Assembly (NCBI GenBank): GCA_965153355.1
Contig: OZ231126.1
Span: forward strand, 10,044,001-10,108,000
Direction: 5' to 3'
Length of the DNA stretch: 64,000 nt
Origin: Flaccisagitta enflata
Lineage: Eukaryota
Part shown: positions 14,305 through 22,880 of the stretch, in pieces
Layout of the letters: every line of letters starts with the position of its first letter
Position numbering within the stretch: position 1 is the stretch's first letter
Translations under genes and position numbers: made by a program
Notes under the pieces: generated by a model
Told to the model about the DNA's origin: nothing
The model's database searches: none
Seen by the model: only the letters and a program-made list of their open reading frames with translations

Positions 14305-17300
14305 TTAAGCATTTTTGAGTTCCGTGCCAATTTTGTATCCTAGAATTTTATTCCAGTCGATTTTGGTTCGGGTGACGGGAAGTTGCCTTCTTAGCGCTTT
14401 GAACGTCGTGTCGGACATCGCGGTGTAGTTCTCAGAAATGGCACTCTGGATGGTAACAGGAAAGGACAAAGGGAATTGGGCGGTGTTGTCTTATAATTGG
14501 AACTTAATGACAAAGAAAGGCTACGGAAATGGCGCTTTACAACTTTATATATAAGAGCCGATTCTGTGCAATGCGCTGAGCTGTGGGATCAACTATAAAG
14601 ACTGTTCTAAAAGTGACATTATTAAGTTTCACATTCGCTGTTCCTTATCATTTGTATTTCATTGCTCATAGTTGAAGATGTCAGGGATGTCCTTTATCAT
14701 GATATTTCCTTTGTCTTTGTATCTTTAGTGTTAGACCTTACATTGTCCCCTGTGGCTTTTATGCCTGGATTTGATATCAAGACTAAGCTAGTTCTCTGGA
14801 ATAGAGGCCCATATGGTTACATCTTTCGTCCCGCGTGCTTTCCTTCCACATTGTATTTCTTTGCTTAGTGCCTAGCAGAGAATCGATCAATGAAGCCTAC
14901 AAGCAATTAACTCTCAATAGATATCCAGCTACGTTAAGACTCAATCAAGCGATCGGGTTCAAGCCTACGTGGAAGAAGGTAAGGACCGCAAGATATAGGC
15001 TCTTACATATATACAGAAAGTAGCAAATCAAGAAGGAAAGTATCGTTAACAAATTGACACTGGTTCGACAAAACCGTAAGCGTTTAACCAATGCGTTTTG
15101 CATGTTGAAGAGCAGATGCAAAATCCAATGTCTGACATGCAGTTCCTTTACATGCAAACCGAACAAACCTGGTAGCTGCTCTCGGCTTCTTCGACGAGCT
15201 TGACTATTTCCTTGGCCGTTTGCTGTTCGTTGGTGACCGTCACCGATTCTTTCACTTCTTTCGAACTCACCAACTGGACGTTACCATCTTCGTAATAGTG
15301 CACCTAAAACACAATCACAACTTTTCAACATTGTATCAGAACGTTCAAAGCATGAAAGGGAAAGGCGTTGGGTGAGGAGGAGAAAAGGACAAAAGTCAAG
15401 GACAAAAGTCAAGGACAGAAAGTCAAGGCTGACAAACGTGCGCGAATGAAAGATACATATGACATGGAGTCAATTTACCGACTATGCGTAAAAAATTCTT
15501 AAAATCATGGAGTTTTTCAAATAACACTAAGGACCTAGAAACATATCACAATACATGTATACTTGTATTTTACCGTCGTATCAGAATGTTTAAAGCAAGA
15601 AAGGGAAAGGCGTCGGCCGTCGGGTGAGGAGGGGAAGAGGGAAAGAGTACAAAGGCAAAAGTCAAAGCCCAGTCCAAGTCAAGGCTGACAAATGTGCGCG
15701 AATGAAAGAGATGACATGAAGTCAAGTTATCAACTAAGCGCAAAAATTTCTTAAAATCATGGATTTACTTGGACTTTGAGGAGGCCGTTCAACTCGGCTG
15801 TTGCTGAGGAAAAAGTGGCGGTCCATTGAGAGCGCCATCTCCCGTTCCAAAAGTTCTTTGGCTGAAATTGATGACTTTCGATGCAGGCAGTCAGCGTCAC
15901 GTTGCCGCTGGAACTCGACCCGTACACGGTGCACACCCCGTACTTGTAGTGCTCCTGTGAAATGAGAGTACAGATCCAATGATAATAAAATACCTTAATT
16001 CCTTTAGGGAATTCCGGATTCCTTTCGCCATCCACCCCAATCGACGTGTGGGAATTCGCTCGTCGAAATCTCTCTCAGCGAAAATCCAAACAAAAGGATA
16101 AAGCTTTTCCGCCGAGCCGCATGGTGGCGGCTGGTCTGGGCCTGTCTGGCCATGAACAATAGCCCGTAGCCGGCGAAAAGCCTCACTCGTCTGAAGAAGG
16201 GGGGCCCTGGGGGGTCACCCCCAGATCTCGGCAGTAGAAACGGAAAAACACTTCCGCCCCTGACCAGTCACCAGCTCGTAAAATAGCCTCTATGTCAACT
16301 CCACCTGCCAAGGCGGCGGAGGTGGACATGGCTCTGGTTGAGCCCGGAGGTGCATTAATTCCAGCTTGACTAAGAATTGACTTGAGCCGACGAGAAAAGG
16401 CTGATGAGGAAAGGCGGGCAAACGGTGGTTTGTCCTCGCAAAACAAGTAATCATGACTTATATTTAGCTTATTTCTTTCAGCAATGAGCGCCTCTAAGGC
16501 CGAAACAGGGCATATGGAAGAGTCATTAGGCAATCTGTAAATGATAATGGGCTTACCCATCCGGCCTGCTTTATCTGTCTTACTTAGTTGAGACGGGATA
16601 AATCTTGCACTAGTTGAATTAATGGACAGAAAATTGGCCGAAATTCGGAGGCTTGCTAGTTCGGAAGGTCGTCTAGTAGAAGCCATCGCTATGAGAAATG
16701 CAGTCTTTCGGATAAGAAGATGGAAAGGAGTCGGAGAAGGGAAATCGCGAAGTAATTTTATGACTTCTCCGGCGTTCCAAGAAGGAAAGAGGCGACGCGA
16801 AGCTGGGCGTCGGTTATAAATACCTTTCATGAGGCGTTTGATAAGAGGATGTTGACCCACATGAAAACCGTCAATTGGAGGAAGAGTCATGGAAATGGCT
16901 GATCTATGTACATTCACCGAAGAGTATTTAAGACCTTTCTTGAACAACATGGAAAGGTAATCGGCGACATTATTTACAGAGACGGAATCGATAGAAATGT
17001 TGCGGGCACTGAGGAAGCGGGAGAAAGAGTCCCAGGCTCGATTGTATCTGTCTCCCGAAGATTTCCTCCATCCATCGGAGATAAGCTCGAAAGCTGCATC
17101 TGTAACTCCTGAGAGGTTGTACGCCCTCCTAAAATCTTCCAAGCGACGAGATGAAGAGACTCTAGAAGAGGAGGTGGAAGATCTGTTGACAGGTCTACTA
17201 AAAGGCGGCTGTTGAAAGGCAGACGTCGAACTTGGAGGACGCGTAGTTGTTGAAGCTTGGGGAACCACGACTGGGCGGTCCAAAATGGAATTATCAGGAT

Positions 17301-20300
17301 GAACACTCCTTGAGACAGAAGAAGCTTTTCTATCACTCTCGGAATCAGAGGAAGGGGAGGAAATACATATGCGAGGTTGAAGTTCCAGGGGAGAGACAGA
17401 GCATCGAATGCTTCTGCTGTTGGCGCTTCCCCCCACGCCATGAATCGAGGTAACTGAGCCGATTTGGGGGAAGCGAACAGGTCTATTTCCGGTACTCCCC
17501 ACAACCGGCATATTTTGCGGAACACTTTGGGACAAAGGTGAAGGTCCGGAAGCTTCTTGAACCTCGACGCAAAATCGGCGTGAAGGTTTTGTTCGGAGGG
17601 AACATAAACGGGAATTATTGCTACCTGTAATTTTGCTGCCAAGAGGAGAATCTCCGTTGCAATTTTGAGGAGTGGCAGTGAATGTGTTCCTCCCTCCTTG
17701 GCGATGTACGACAGGGCTGTCGTCGAGTCTGTCTCCCAAAGGATTGTTTTTACTGGTTTGGTTAAGGAAGGAAAGTAATCCCGGAGGAATATCAACAATG
17801 TCATGGCTTCCTTCGCATTGATATGGTGACGGGCAAGAGCACCCCATTGCCCGTTCACCATCTTCCCCATGTAAAACAGGCCCCAGCCCTCGTCTGAGGA
17901 GTCTGTTGCCACCGTCAAATCCGCATCCTCCAGACTCGGGCGCCAGATTGGAGCCTTGCAATCTTCCATTGTCAGGTTCAAGACCCATTTCATCTCCTGC
18001 TTGGCTTCCTTGGTGAGATGGAGATGTAGAAGAAGATCCGAGGAGGTCTTGTAGAATTTGTTTAGACACACTTGGATCTGACGGCAATGGAGACGGATTA
18101 AGGGTACTGCTGTTATTGCTGCAGTCATTAGCCCCAGAAGCTTCATCACTGAGCGGCATGTCGGAGATGGAAGCGAGAGAAGGAGAGTGGCTTGAGATTG
18201 GAGAGCCGATAACTTCCGCTCCTCCAGAGACACTAACTTGGTCTTGCAATCCCACCAAAGACCTAGAAAGAGGAACCTCTGAGCTGGGATGAGATTCGAC
18301 TTCTTCCAGTTGATCACGAATCCAGCTTCCTGAAAGGTTTTCAACGCTAATGTTACAAACCGTTGGCATTCCTCCAGAGTTGTTCCCAATATCAGAACAT
18401 CGTCCAAATAAAGAATTGCCCTGACCCCCTTTGAGCGGAGAAACGCGGCCAGAGGGCGGGTTATTTTCGTGAACAGGAATGGGGCTGTACAGAGGCCGAA
18501 AGGGAGCACTAGGAATTCGTAGAGTATCCCTTTCCAAACAAAACGAAGAAACTTGCGATGAGTTGGGTGAATTAGAAGGTGAAAGAATGCATCTTTTAAG
18601 TCTATGGTGGCCCCCCAATCGCCGGGGCGAAGGAGAGAGGCCACGTCTCTCACAGTGTCCATCTTGAAATGGGGGGCTGAAATAAATTGGCTGTCCCGGA
18701 GGAGGAAGGGAAGGAGGAGGAGGAGGAGGAGAATGGCGGCCTTGTCATTCTTTGCCGGCCCCCTTGCCGCGAGGGGGGCGGCTCGTAGCATTTCCCCGCG
18801 CAGAAGGCTTGCGGGAAGAAGCTGCCCCAGATTTAAAGTTTTTGCCCCTATTGAAACGAGACTGAGGCTGGCGAGATGCATATGAAAAACTTCCTTTAGC
18901 AGCAGGCAAGAAACGGCGGGAAGACTTGTCATCCAAGGACCGAAGCATGAAAGCACTTGAAATGGCTGAGTTGACTTTCTCTGATTCATTGCCAAAAAAG
19001 TGAGAGGCAGATGGTTTGGCCTCTTTCAATGCAGACTTAAGTTGTCGGGCTTGAGGAGAGGCAATGACAAGCCGACGGACATCTTTAACACAGTTGTTGG
19101 TAACAGCTGCAAGGCACGTAGTTGCATCAGAAATTGGCGAGAGAACACTAGACTTAAATGAGTCCTTCGTAGTTGATCGCCATTCAGCCCACTCCTCTCT
19201 GGAGGGTGGGTTTTTGGGCAGCTCACTCAAGAAGCACTGAATAAAGGCCTTTGCCGATAAAATTGCGTGAGCAGCCGCACCGGTACAATTCATGGTCGAA
19301 TTGAGCAAGTTGAACTGAGCCTTAGACTTTGTTTTGACATGTTCGAAGGCGGCAGAAAGAGAATCATCTGCCTTGGGAGCTGCAAAGGAAGGGGCACCAA
19401 TTGCATGTGCCCATTTACGTTTGAAACGATTTGTTGAAATGCGGTCCCAATCAGAGGACATTTTACCAAAGGCCAGCTCTTTAGAAGGACCTTTGTCCGT
19501 AGAATCAGACTCGGTAGTTGCATCAGAGAGGCAACGGGCTGTAAGCCACTGGGATTTGACCCATTTGCCCTCTGTCACGTACTTCCATGAACGTTTGGAA
19601 GACTGAATCGATTCCTTAGAGGAATTAGACTCGGCATCAGAAGGATGAACATCTTCTATGTCCGAGGCCGCACGGGATTGCTCCGACGAAGATAAAGGCG
19701 ATTTATCCATCTGGCGATAACGTTTGGTTCGACCAGAGGATGTGCGGCAGGGGGACAAAGGACGCTTCTGTCCTCGACCAGAAGCCCCCCCTCCTTCTGC
19801 TTATAGTATGACGTCATCAGTCATAGAGCAGAAGGGAACACAATGGAGGGACCGGAAACATGGTTTCACAATGTGTTTTACCGGAATGAATGGATGAGGG
19901 ACCGGAAAACATGGTTTCGATCATCATTCCGGAGTCAAAAATCACGAGGAACAGATTGGAGAGAGAAAGCGCAGCAGGCGAAAGGAAAGTTGCGTAACAC
20001 ATGAAAGAAAGAAATCACAAAAAAATTTAACCCCAATATACTACGATGACTCCCAGCCTAATCCCCACCAGAGGTGGAGACTAGGGGTGGAAGGTGGGAA
20101 TCGATTGGGGTGGATGGCGAAAGGAATCCGGAATTCCCTAAAGGAATTAAGGTATTCCATTTCGCCATCCACCCCAATCGACGTGTGGGAATATGCAAAG
20201 AACAGGAGGAAGCGTAGGAATGTAGAGCGGTGATTGGGGTGAGCAAGCGCAAGGAAGAAAACCGACCTGGCTGGGACGTTGGAATCTTAGATAGAGCGTC

Positions 20301-22880
20301 AGAGAGCAAAGAGCGCAATTGGCCAAAGTCGGCATCTCGTGATTTTGACTGACCAGGTCCACTTGACTGATCTGCAGGCGTCACGCGGACCGAGCGGTCA
20401 AGACGGGAACGGCTGGCACGGGTCTGGTCACCTACTTCAGCTCTAGCTCCAGCAAGAGACTCCAAAAAAGCGGCTGAGCGTTTTGGAGATTTGTGTGACG
20501 AAGATTCGGGAGGACGAAAGTAGCCAGTAGGAGGAAGGTAACACTCCTCATCATCGGCAACGAAGGCGTCATATTGCGATCGATATTCGTCTTCGTATTC
20601 ATTCTGATCGGAAAAACTATCGTCCGGAGTGCGGTCCCACCGCGGCGAGAAGGCGCGTTCCTTACGACTTCGATCACGATTCTCGTCACATTCACGGAGA
20701 AGCCTACGCGCTTCGTCATAATCTTGATGAGCGCGAGACTCGGGAGACAAACTTTGCTCCCAGTTTTCATCATCAGAAATCTCATCCATGATGGAAGAGT
20801 TTTCACTTGATTTAGATACGATTTCAAGTTCGATCGTTTAGAAGAAAAATGCGACTAAACGAGATAAATGGAAGTGCAATCAAGACATAAAATGCAATGC
20901 ACGACGAAAAAGCAGATCAATGTTAATAAACATTTAAATAAAATAATCGAAAAATACGTGTTTACACGAAGCGTGAGCGAATAGAAGTGAGGCTTTTCGC
21001 CGGCTACGGGCTATTGTTCATGGCCAGACAGGCCCAGACCAGCCGCCACCATGCGGCTCGGCGGAAAAGCTTTATCCTTTTGTTTGGATTTTCGCTGAGA
21101 GAGATTTCGACGAGCGAATTCCCACACGTCGATTGGGGTGGATGGCGAAATGGAATGAGAGGGGAAGCAAAATCGCTAGCACCCCTACCCACAGCTCAGA
21201 TAAACAATGTTACATGGACAACCAAGATAACAATCCAAAGCTAATCCCAATTCAATTCCCGTCATGAGAGCGTTTTTTGAATTTCCACTTGGTTCCTGAA
21301 ATATTGGTCATAAAAGGGCTAAATCCAACACTTCCAAAAATGGCGGATTTTCACCCTTAAAAGGCCTATATCTTGAAAACTAGGTTGAATTTAAGAAATC
21401 GCCTCGATGGCGGAAAATGTATTGGGATAAGCTACTAGCCACCACCTTGCATATCTGTGTGGTATCGAACATCTAAGCTGCAGGTAGGGGTGCTAGCGAT
21501 TTTGTCTACCCCTCTCACTTTAATATCATTGCTTCTGTAGATGTAAACCTTTCCCATTTGGGTACAAAATGTGGTCGTGTGCACTACTGTATGTGCTAAC
21601 CCGTACATTGAACATTCTTAACAGAAGACGGGGTCTTGACTTCCGTGGAGCATGTTCTTACGGCGTTTTCAAATCGGACAAGGCGCGTGCTCTTACCTTG
21701 ACATTCCCAGAGCGAGCATCATGAACAGCGTGACGCCAAGGTTCAGCAGTATGTAATCTCAAGATCAGCAATTTGAATATTTTTACCTTGACCTTGACGT
21801 ATTAACTATCAAGAGGACATCTTGAAGGGTGTGACGCCAAGGTTCCGCTGCATTGTTAACTTCAGTTGGTCGCCTAACCGTACCTTGACATACGAAGAGA
21901 GAGCATCTTGGAGGGCGTGACGCCAAAGTTCTGCTGCATTGTTAACTTCAGTTGGTCATCTAACCTTACCTTGACATACGAAGAGAGAGCATCTTGGAGG
22001 GCGTGACACCAAGGTTCCGCTGCATTGTTAACTTCAGTTGGTCGCCTAACCTTACCTTGACATACGAAGAGAGAGCATCTTGGAGGGCGTGACGCCAAAG
22101 TTCTGCTGCATTAACTTCAGTTGGTCATCTAACCTTACCTTGACATACAAAGAGAGAGCATCTTGGAGGGCGTGACACCAAGGTTCCGCTGCATTGTTAA
22201 CTTCAGTTGGTCGCCTAACCTTACCTTGACATACGAAGAGAGAGCATCTTGGAGGGCGTGACACCAAGGTTCCGCTGCATTGTTAACTTCAGTTGGTCGC
22301 CTAACCTTACCTTGACATACGAAGAGAGAGCATCTTGGAGGGCGTGTCGCCAAGGTTCTGCGGCGTTGTCGAGTTCAGTGGGTTGCACGTCGGAAGCCTC
22401 TTTGCGCAGGTGATCGAATTTGAATGACTGTTTTGAACGCGGATCCACAAAACGGCCGTTGCCTGCAGATATCAAAGCGAGTTGTTGTTTCAGAGATAAT
22501 GGCTTACCGCTTATCACGTTGTTCAACGGGAAAATATCGGAATATGCCTATCGGCTAACTCCTAAAATTGTAATTACAAGAATAAATCGAGACATTTCAA
22601 ATGACCACAATTGCACACAAATAGGTCAAAGTGTACCTAAGTCGGCAAACTCGGTAACGAGCGCTTTGTCCTCTGCGTTGTCGGTGAGGGCGACGGGCGT
22701 GAACTGATCTTTGTTGTACTTGGAAAAGGCGGGCGTGGCGCCGTCCTTGAGCAGATTGTCGTCGTTGACGAGGATGCGGACGTCGTTGAAGACTTCGTTG
22801 AACTCGCCAGGCGGCGCGTGAAGGATAAAGTCTGACACGATGCGGATCTTCTCGTTCTCGGAAATGGGATCCTCATCCAT
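14305..22880 (-). CDS. CAPZA: F-actin capping protein subunit alpha, 5 exons
   Basis: Exons 22880-22637 ([18 protein letters not shown]), 22462-22311, 15954-15769 ([15 protein letters not shown]), 15303-15169 ([13 protein letters not shown]) and 14445-14305 ([20 protein letters not shown]). Confidence 0.96.
16183..18618 (-). CDS. DIRS tyrosine recombinase ORF (overlaps pol)
   Basis: [28 protein letters not shown] and AGDWS...FFRFY with the catalytic Tyr. Confidence 0.88.
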   Translation of the reverse strand: MGGHHRLKRCILSPSNSPNSSQVSSFCLERDTLRIPSAPFRPLYSPIPVHENNPPSGRVSPLKGGQGNSLFGRCSDIGNNSGGMPTVCNISVENLSGSWIRDQLEEVESHPSSEVPLSRSLVGLQDQVSVSGGAEVIGSPISSHSPSLASISDMPLSDEASGANDCSNNSSTLNPSPLPSDPSVSKQILQDLLGSSSTSPSHQGSQAGDEMGLEPDNGRLQGSNLAPESGGCGFDGGNRLLRRGLGPVLHGEDGERAMGCSCPSPYQCEGSHDIVDIPPGLLSFLNQTSKNNPLGDRLDDSPVVHRQGGRNTFTATPQNCNGDSPLGSKITGSNNSRLCSLRTKPSRRFCVEVQEASGPSPLSQSVPQNMPVVGSTGNRPVRFPQIGSVTSIHGVGGSANSRSIRCSVSPLELQPRICISSPSSDSESDRKASSVSRSVHPDNSILDRPVVVPQASTTTRPPSSTSAFQQPPFSRPVNRSSTSSSRVSSSRRLEDFRRAYNLSGVTDAAFELISDGWRKSSGDRYNRAWDSFSRFLSARNISIDSVSVNNVADYLSMLFKKGLKYSSVNVHRSAISMTLPPIDGFHVGQHPLIKRLMKGIYNRRPASRRLFPSWNAGEVIKLLRDFPSPTPFHLLIRKTAFLIAMASTRRPSELASLRISANFLSINSTSARFIPSQLSKTDKAGRMGKPIIIYRLPNDSSICPVSALEALIAERNKLNISHDYLFCEDKPPFARLSSSAFSRRLKSILSQAGINAPPGSTRAMSTSAALAGGVDIEAILRAGDWSGAEVFFRFYCRDLGVTPQGPPSSDE
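16974..18995 (-). CDS. DIRS pol: RT, RNase H and adenine-methyltransferase-like domain (RT N-terminus appears to be missing)
   Basis: [51 protein letters not shown] and YVFPP. Confidence 0.9.
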   Translation of the reverse strand: MAMNQRKSTQPFQVLSCFGPWMTSLPAVSCLLLKEVFHMHLASLSLVSIGAKTLNLGQLLPASLLRGEMLRAAPLAARGPAKNDKAAILLLLLLLPFLLRDSQFISAPHFKMDTVRDVASLLRPGDWGATIDLKDAFFHLLIHPTHRKFLRFVWKGILYEFLVLPFGLCTAPFLFTKITRPLAAFLRSKGVRAILYLDDVLILGTTLEECQRFVTLALKTFQEAGFVINWKKSNLIPAQRFLFLGLWWDCKTKLVSLEERKLSALQSQATLLLSLPSPTCRSVMKLLGLMTAAITAVPLIRLHCRQIQVCLNKFYKTSSDLLLHLHLTKEAKQEMKWVLNLTMEDCKAPIWRPSLEDADLTVATDSSDEGWGLFYMGKMVNGQWGALARHHINAKEAMTLLIFLRDYFPSLTKPVKTILWETDSTTALSYIAKEGGTHSLPLLKIATEILLLAAKLQVAIIPVYVPSEQNLHADFASRFKKLPDLHLCPKVFRKICRLWGVPEIDLFASPKSAQLPRFMAWGEAPTAEAFDALSLPWNFNLAYVFPPLPLIPRVIEKLLLSQGVFILIIPFWTAQSWFPKLQQLRVLQVRRLPFNSRLLVDLSTDLPPPLLESLHLVAWKILGGRTTSQELQMQLSSLSPMDGGNLRETDTIEPGTLSPASSVPATFLSIPSL
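18745..20789 (-). CDS. DIRS gag-like ORF1, possibly two exons (20789-20267 joined to 19796-18745)
   Basis: Occupies the ORF1 position ahead of pol and has a basic C-terminus; two open frames can be joined by a phase-1 GT-AG intron. Confidence 0.55.
20101..20192. other. DIRS internal complementary region (ICR)
   Basis: 20101-20156 is the reverse complement of 15989-16044, and 20154-20192 is the reverse complement of 21118-21156; the two halves overlap at ATT. Confidence 0.93.
21690..22360 (-). repeat. ~86-bp tandem repeat derived from the CAPZA exon 2 3' end plus its splice donor
   Basis: About 6 good and 2 degenerate copies of the [11 protein letters not shown]|gtaagg junction. Confidence 0.9.

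Follow-up and report, generated by a model that had tools for sequence, protein, structure and literature searches.

DIRS1-like retrotransposons carry an internal complementary region (ICR), a splint by which the two termini of the element can be rejoined. Can this region lie near the front of such an element, within an intron of the gag gene, and what would this mean for the expression and replication of the element? The question is raised by a DIRS1-like element in the genome of Flaccisagitta enflata (assembly GCA_965153355.1, contig OZ231126.1, positions 10,044,001 to 10,108,000). We refer to this whole stretch of 64,000 nt as the window, give all positions relative to it and note that the minus strand is the reading strand of the element. 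We propose that the ICR has moved in this family from its usual 3′ site to about 1 kb from the 5′ end, where it sits in a structured, non-coding module of 470 nt that interrupts gag and is most likely a spliceosomal intron. To the whole of this explanation, a DIRS element with a 5′ ICR whose gag intron separates message from replication template, we assign a rough probability of 0.55. The analysis draws on two DNA runs (X1 and X8) and one polyA RNA run (X7) from the organism, and on protein relatives from databases (P0001–P0013).

The ICR lies near the 5′ end of the element

A preliminary description of this DNA, made from the letters alone, had placed an ICR at 20101–20192 and proposed that it joins copies of both termini over the letters ATT. 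We recovered the same region: its two halves (Table 1) together span 92 nt (20192..20101), both are perfect, and they overlap on AAT (ATT on the plus strand) at 20154–20156. Chance alone falls far short of producing perfect complementarities of 39 and 56 nt. The ICR occupies positions 965–1056 of the 5168 positions of the element and thus starts at 0.187 of its length (19%), about 1 kb behind the 5′ end.

Among annotated DIRS1-like elements, the start of the ICR lies at 0.858–0.945 of the length, downstream of the tyrosine recombinase (YR) motif, in 28 of 28 cases (PMC3266345), and a DIRS curation guide likewise places the ICR at the 3′ end. The earlier statement that the canonical ICR is found downstream of the open reading frames (ORFs) near the 3′ end is borne out by both sources, and a 5′ ICR is not the standard among these 28 published elements. 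The window element lacks an ICR in this usual location downstream of the YR ORF, where the internal region ends. Between its YR motif and the 3′ end there are 355 nt, compared to a minimum of 447 nt among the 28 elements (computed from the table in PMC3266345). Furthermore, the stop codon of the recombinase (TGA, 16185–16183) lies inside the 3′ inverted terminal repeat (ITR), which leaves no 3′ non-coding space, just as had been described.

By every mechanistic feature that we tested, the element belongs to the DIRS1-like group, since it has a YR, a reverse transcriptase (RT), ITRs, a two-part ICR with a 3 nt junction, a right extension and an insertion free of a target site duplication (TSD). 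Its terminal repeats are inverted, and we found no long direct repeat of the termini in the order A1...B1-A2-B2 that characterizes PAT-like and Ngaro elements. We conclude that the 3′ location of the ICR is a positional convention and not a mechanistic requirement, and we thus keep the element in the DIRS1-like group as a variant member.

Could the 5′ ICR be an artefact of assembly or a rearrangement of one copy? De Bruijn contigs do break around it (the records of X1 end at 19901 and begin at 20192), which is explained by the ICR repeating the ends of the ITRs. The independent relative P0008, which is 66% identical over ORF A (the first of the two gag-region ORFs), runs directly from ORF A into a conserved ICR on one contig. 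As P0008 has the same arrangement, the 5′ ICR is a trait of the family and not of one copy. In addition, the element is compact and self-consistent with its two perfect ICR halves, and the position of the YR stop within the ITR leaves no space for an ICR at the 3′ end. We consider an artefact extremely unlikely.

The accessible literature reports neither a 5′ ICR nor a native DIRS intron; Repbase and Dfam were outside this search, which thus does not establish absence from print. The supplement of PMC3266345 yielded no sequence matches. Relative to the surveyed elements, a DIRS variant with a front-placed ICR, around which gag is split, is new.

The interval around the ICR as a probable intron of gag

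The preliminary description had further proposed that the ICR lies in an intron of gag. When the proposed intron (CAG/GTCGGT ... TATAAGCAG/AAGG) is excised, ORF A and ORF B (the second gag-region ORF) are joined in frame into 525 codons including the stop, none of which is an internal stop; the predicted fusion is thus reproduced.

We compared the conservation of both ORFs across their relatives, which are P0008, P0009, P0010 and the more distant P0013 for ORF A and six proteins with 62–85% identity for ORF B. The conservation of ORF A extends up to the proposed donor. Over the last 30 residues before it, 61/90 cells are identical in P0008, P0009 and P0010, and in the same three relatives 7/9 cells are identical for the G-x-F codons spanning G/GTCGGTTT. 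Past the donor, the similarity ends, and P0009 and P0010 hit stops 6–7 codons on. For ORF B, the conserved sequence of the six relatives starts at the first codon after the proposed acceptor. Identity across these relatives is 56% for residues 2–30 (89/160 cells), 62% for residues 31–100 and 68% for residues 101–351. In the window, a TAA stands two codons upstream of the conserved block and the first ATG is M31, a residue kept in only one of the six relatives; the 29 conserved residues before M31 can be reached from no in-frame start codon.

Upstream of the block, neither the length (0 to ~25 residues) nor the sequence is shared among the relatives. In P0002, P0004 and P0005, the extension abounds in L, F, S, C and P, which have U/C-rich codons (e.g. 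LLHLLLCCCASI), as a translated polypyrimidine tract would. The codon that would be split by the intron encodes E, V or G in the relatives, all with codons starting with G. Splicing is the best explanation for these observations, because a conserved coding block without a reachable start begins at an AG, and the ORF upstream of it loses its conservation at a GT. Judging from these sequence comparisons, the balance tips slightly towards 20266..19797 being a spliceosomal GT..AG intron of phase 1.

The splice sites had been called only moderately consensus. Read by eye and with no scoring model, the donor shows a G at +5 and a T at +6 next to a C at +3; on the acceptor side, there is a pyrimidine-rich run at about −35 to −60, and the sequence closest to the AG is mixed or purine-rich. 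A similarly weak donor, CAG/GTTTGT, occurs in the host gene at 15169, where it is marked by seven RNA reads with loose ends, and the adjacent host intron has a length of 465 nt, close to the proposed 470 nt.

The interval is highly structured in its predicted fold, with a minimum free energy of −147.4 kcal/mol and a z-score of −7.6 (0/100 shuffles fold as well). Much of this structure is made up by the near-perfect ICR hairpin and two tandem hairpins at 19843–19918. The latter correspond to a 25 nt unit in two tandem copies 51 nt apart, each predicted to fold into a CCGGAA...UUCCGG hairpin, and they may act as cis elements.

The preliminary description had suggested looking for indel tolerance inside the interval, and this is what we observed in contigs of the DNA runs. 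Inside the interval, there are 1 nt indel variants at 19826, 19875, 20204 and 20220, and larger differences (19932>20040 and 19988>20073). For exon 1, the listed indels are limited to two, at 20594 and 20598, which compensate each other. This contrast supports a non-coding interval. Log-odds of codon usage were uninformative: with a training set that included overlapping frames and one off-by-one coordinate, the scores did not tell apart even segments known to be coding.

Evidence against an intron and alternative explanations

Several observations weigh against splicing. The in-frame fit alone is weak evidence, because the region holds 20 in-frame, stop-free GT..AG pairs and AG recurs every 3 nt: the acceptors at 19800, 19794 and 19791 are in frame as well (AAG CAG AAG GAG), which makes four acceptors at a spacing of 3 nt. 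Both splice signals are weak: the donor has the C at +3, and the last 25 nt before the AG are purine-rich or mixed. P0013, a relative with 35% identity, lacks the Gly at the donor position. In P0001, which shares 85% identity, an in-frame ATG precedes the ORF B block by 8 codons and the stop is absent. In both the window and P0008, ORF A has 69 further open codons past the donor, across the ICR. Since the DNA of the relatives was not found, the boundary comparison was made at the protein level only and conservation of GT and AG was never seen directly. In the alignment search with ORF B, there were 164 pattern matches in metagenome contigs, 86 in genome contigs and 114 in viral contigs, of which 0 were confirmed in each set, and the 21 nt ICR core had 0 matches in metagenome contigs. 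Lastly, the RNA run and the protein collections contain no spliced product, as described in the next section.

Some of these observations can be accounted for by two independent ORFs that are expressed without splicing. The ICR would then lie in a spacer between them and ORF B would use a separate start shortly ahead of the conserved block, perhaps on a subgenomic RNA; the copy in the window would have lost this start to the TAA and would rely on proteins supplied in trans. In favour of this reading, retroelements rarely have introns, the splice signals are weak and the protein collections gave no fused protein. The proteins of DIRS-1 can act in trans, according to the part of PMC7192593 available to us. 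P0001 begins with MTDDVIIL-EGGE at the same ATG as the window's ATGACTGATGAC, without the stop, and 6/6 full-length relatives are called with a start codon upstream of the block. However, the gene caller writes M for any start codon that it uses, and the start position varies between subfamilies, from 0 to ~25 residues upstream, with extensions that are unrelated to each other and, in P0002, P0004 and P0005, have the biased composition described above. In the window, there is no in-frame ATG between the stop two codons before the block and M31, and translation of ORF B would require ribosomes to get past ORF A and several AUGs over 470 nt. This arrangement is probably common to other near-identical copies, since a contig of X1 covering 19089–19901 differs from the window at one letter and has a depth of 347 (~2–3x that of the host flanks). 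We regard two unspliced ORFs as possible, if doubtful.

A second alternative takes ORF A as a protein of 243 aa that is translated through the ICR, which would then be coding, with no intron and with ORF B as a second gene. The frame of ORF A is indeed open for the 69 codons past the donor, to 20058, and in P0008, too, the frame continues through the ICR and reaches a stop at a similar place. P0009 and P0010, however, stop 6–7 codons after PGxF. In P0008, the first 35 residues are frameshifted relative to the ORF A of the window, which marks this copy as decayed. Between donor and ICR, P0008 matches the window in only 6/16 aligned cells, and two of the 1 nt indels fall into this stretch (20204, with a depth of 1028 of 2938 in X1, and 20220). 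The ICR itself is conserved because its complementarity to the termini fixes its sequence. Translation through the ICR is thus very unlikely.

Search for splicing in RNA, protein and DNA

For the spliceosomal intron, which we favour, the preliminary description had named reads over the 20267/19796 junction as a direct check. We ran this check on the region 15100–21700 with the polyA run X7 of the same study, of which 12.16 million reads (~6% of the run) were used. It matched 13 reads, of which 0 lie on the element, so that there was neither a junction read nor continuous coverage. All 13 reads are 90–95% alike to the window, nearly all lie on two bins of host exons, and their probable source is a paralogue or a divergent genotype, because they carry synonymous differences from the exons of the window. 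Run X7 carries no information on the expression or splicing of the element.

In the protein collections, no fused protein of ORF A and ORF B was among the hits (sets of 7, 5 and 13, the second without a limit on length). A missing fused Gag is weak evidence, because these collections are mostly gene calls on genomic contigs. The proposal of a gag intron has indirect support from the in-frame fit, the conservation boundaries and an ORF B without a usable or conserved start.

In the DNA runs, we asked for copies that have lost the intron. Among the 15 joints listed from 795 contigs of X1 and 761 of X8, none corresponds to 19796/20267, so intronless copies without an ICR, which would have spoken against the proposal if common, do not appear among these joints. 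The absence of this joint fits an intron that is enforced by the ICR and fits equally well with no splicing at all.

A proposed separation of message and replication template

If the interval is spliced, the spliced RNA would encode a Gag of 524 aa that combines the acidic ORF A part with the core of ORF B. From sequence composition and structure prediction, the full protein may be laid out as the acidic part, a low-confidence N-terminus of ORF B, a helical core and a basic tail. It follows from the anatomy of the element that the spliced RNA lacks the ICR, and cDNA made from it could not be closed and integrated. The unspliced RNA would retain the ICR and be the sole form that completes replication, with its first cistron giving the ORF A product only. 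The intron would thus not be lost, because spliced cDNA without an ICR could not propagate.

The preliminary description had argued that only unspliced RNA could complete circularization. The loss of the ICR upon splicing is a matter of anatomy, and the need for the ICR is taken over from DIRS-1: in the part of PMC7192593 available to us, deletion of the ICR abolishes retrotransposition, and the marked element with the deletion still made cDNA but no new insertions. A split between message and replication template is thus plausible here. Only tentatively do we go further and suggest a splicing switch, where spliced RNA would be the sole source of full Gag and unspliced RNA the sole template, the ICR would bar the loss of the intron by retroposition and derivatives of the element would exploit the same module. 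No other YR retrotransposon is known to us whose intron retention is enforced by a cis element for replication.

The findings bear on how DIRS elements are recognized and understood. The position of the ICR is not fixed and the 3′ end is not obligatory. Such elements would be mis-annotated by rules and tools in which the ICR is expected to follow the recombinase. For the model of DIRS replication, a splint at work ~1 kb behind the 5′ end speaks for annealing that is intramolecular and position-independent. If the interval is indeed spliced, the element would be a clean natural case of a retroelement that keeps an intron and separates message from template. As the family is young and polymorphic in its host, tests such as RT-PCR are feasible.

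Comparison with known elements

The closest relatives are the DIRS1-like elements, such as Dictyostelium DIRS-1, AcaDIRS1, LgDIRS1–3 and DpuDIRS3 (PMC3266345). They have in common with the window element a Gag-like ORF, a pol with RT, RNase H (RH) and methyltransferase (MT), a YR, ITRs and a two-part ICR, and furthermore a right extension only, a size of ~5.2 kb, a long overlap of ORFs and insertion at a trinucleotide without a TSD. The combination of ATT/ATT termini with an AAT junction is the commonest type in Table 3 of Piednoel et al. 2011 (PMC3266345). The window element differs in that the ICR lies at 19% of its length between two ORFs of the gag region, compared to 86–95% after the recombinase, that it has no 3′ non-coding region and that its gag is split by a non-coding module of 470 nt.

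In PAT-like and Ngaro elements, an internal copy of the terminal junction regenerates the ends, as the ICR does, and the curation guide notes other repeat configurations; their repeats are direct (A1...B1-A2-B2), whereas those of the window element are inverted.

The proposed separation of RNAs has parallels in other retroelements. The retroviral packaging signal lies downstream of the major splice donor, so that an essential cis element is lost upon splicing and the unspliced RNA is the genome. In retroviruses, however, unspliced RNA codes for Gag and splicing gives the env and accessory mRNAs, whereas in the window element splicing would be needed for full Gag. Furthermore, the module removed here acts in the joining of cDNA ends and not in packaging. 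Copia makes a spliced gag mRNA that favours Gag. A spliced, Gag-favouring message that is distinct from the RNA pool for reverse transcription is likewise described for the long terminal repeat (LTR) retrotransposon BARE1 in the part of PMC3735527 available to us. BARE1, in contrast, is an LTR element with an integrase, and the same part of that source describes no essential replication element in its intron.

Architecture and coding regions

The features of the element are collected in Table 1. The boundaries, which were set by the matches to the ICR, are also supported by a copy of the surrounding miniature inverted-repeat transposable element (MITE) without the DIRS element. In this empty site, found in one contig of X8 with a side of 30 nt, position 15988 is joined to 21154, which skips 5165 nt and leaves three letters that fit both sides; the insertion is thus free of a TSD and lies at a trinucleotide equal to the junction. 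A repeat arm of 61 nt with 97% identity runs 5 nt past the true 3′ end at 15989. The core of the ITRs (20986–21150 and 16023–16187) comprises 165 nt with 100% complementarity; when one 1 nt indel is allowed, the pairing reaches the 5′ terminus at 21156, which gives the lengths of 171 and 170 nt.

Table 1. Positions of the features of the DIRS1-like element and its surroundings in the window
Feature	Position	Strand	Remarks
Whole DIRS1-like element	21156..15989	-	5,168 bp; starts ATTCC..., ends ...GGTATT; termini set by perfect ICR matches
Left terminus / 5′ ITR	20986..21156	-	171 nt
3′ ITR	16018..16187	-	170 nt; includes YR stop TGA 16185-16183
Right extension (rE)	15989..16017	-	29 nt; pairs with the right ICR half only, no partner at the left terminus
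Left ICR	20154..20192	-	39 nt perfect reverse complement of the 5′ terminus
Right ICR	20101..20156	-	56 nt perfect reverse complement of the 3′ terminus
Proposed gag exon 1 (ORF A)	20789..20267	-	starts at ATG 20789 (A at -3, G at +4), ends with the G preceding the donor
Proposed intron	20266..19797	-	470 nt, GT..AG, phase 1; contains the ICR hairpin plus two hairpins in tandem
Proposed gag exon 2 (ORF B)	19796..18745	-	conserved block, helical core, basic tail; ends with TGA 18747-18745
pol frame with RT, RH and MT motifs	16974..19025	-	open from 19025; first ATG 18662; overlaps the end of ORF B
Tyrosine recombinase domain	16183..17196	-	frame open back to 18744, same frame as ORF B
High-copy MITE-like element hosting the DIRS	21157..21538	.	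remaining 20 nt at 15969-15988

The product of ORF A is acidic and matched no Pfam family. The open frame of ORF B covers 19800–18745. Its predicted structure has a mean predicted local distance difference test (pLDDT) score of 50.7, with a helical hairpin at about residues 146–247 that reaches 70–79 and low confidence for residues 1–140.

In pol, the RVT_1 family was recognized with an E-value of 8.4e-20, and the translation carries DLKDAF, YLDD, ATDSS, ADFASR, VFPP and PFW; these six motif types are those given by Piednoel et al. (PMC3266345). The RH and MT parts had no match in the Pfam scan, and the finger region of the RT was not recognized, either there or against solved RTs. We dropped the idea of a 5′-truncated pol, as 121 open codons precede FKMD in the RT frame, which overlaps the end of ORF B. 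This is about the length that precedes the same point in the RT of Ty3, so the fingers may be present in a divergent form. A (CCT)n run at 18698–18741, just after the gag stop, reads as poly-Leu in the pol frame, and the finger motifs are unrecognizable around it; as a repeat, this run was excluded from the read analysis.

The recombinase matched Phage_integrase with an E-value of 7.1e-07 (29.6 bits, with a cut-off of 27.1) and, for its SAM-like N-domain, Phage_int_SAM_1 with an E-value of 2e-05. Together with ORF B it occupies one frame of 1,206 codons (19800–16183, minus strand) that is interrupted by a single stop, the TGA at 18747–18745; readthrough of this stop would yield a fusion of Gag and YR. 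The open frame of the recombinase has 853 codons and overlaps the entire pol ORF. Long overlaps of ORFs are known in about half of the DIRS1-like elements.

Insertion site, copies and derivatives

The element lies in an intron of the gene for the F-actin capping protein alpha, in the same orientation as the gene, whose flanking exons match positions 1–67, 117–176 and 177–221 of the PF01267 profile. It is inserted at an ATT in a terminal repeat of the MITE (flanks CTCTC/ATT...ATT/TTATT). The MITE is ~400 nt long, has terminal inverted repeats at 21161–21226 and 21446–21511 with 73% complementarity and reaches a depth of ~85,000–97,000 in X1 and X8; it is also found in a marine metagenome run. 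An allele without MITE and DIRS, which joins 15968 to 21539, is present at a depth of 92.7 in X1 and 67.4 in X8. As the ITRs are perfect and an empty allele coexists, the insertion is young and polymorphic.

The depth in X1 is 341 in the interior of the element, compared to 98–255 in the host flanks, and rises to 1,000–2,400 at the ITRs, in the last 220 nt of the YR ORF (16205–16425) and at 19741–20403, that is, to 3–7x that of the coding interior. Furthermore, we found a joint, 20253>20951, that removes ORF A, and another, 16247>16387. The depth pattern and the joint 20253>20951 suggest that there are short non-autonomous derivatives in which the ITRs are kept together with the ICR module; this module has nearly the same extent as the proposed intron.

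Three further observations concern the surroundings and the relatives of the element. First, an 86 bp tandem repeat lies at 21770–22451, with six listed copies of a three-unit register of 255 nt. It duplicates the 3′ end of the capping protein exon with its donor AAG/GTAAGG, so that several potential alternative donors are lined up upstream of the DIRS-containing intron. Second, the first 32 residues of P0011 are 100% identical to ORF A (20789–20694) and are followed by unrelated sequence with LLIGSPECKAFS and FLHEHP, both of which we take to resemble motifs of cytosine-5 methyltransferases. The break falls at a GT of the window (CTCC/GTGAAT), and P0011 may represent a transcript of chimeric origin or a copy that another element has disrupted. 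Third, P0012 matches 21026–21156 / 16147–16023 and then 20189–20085, so that an ORF of a relative runs through the full ITR into sequence that resembles the right ICR. This pattern is as expected from the antisense strand of a circle junction or from a tail-to-head (tandem) pair of elements.

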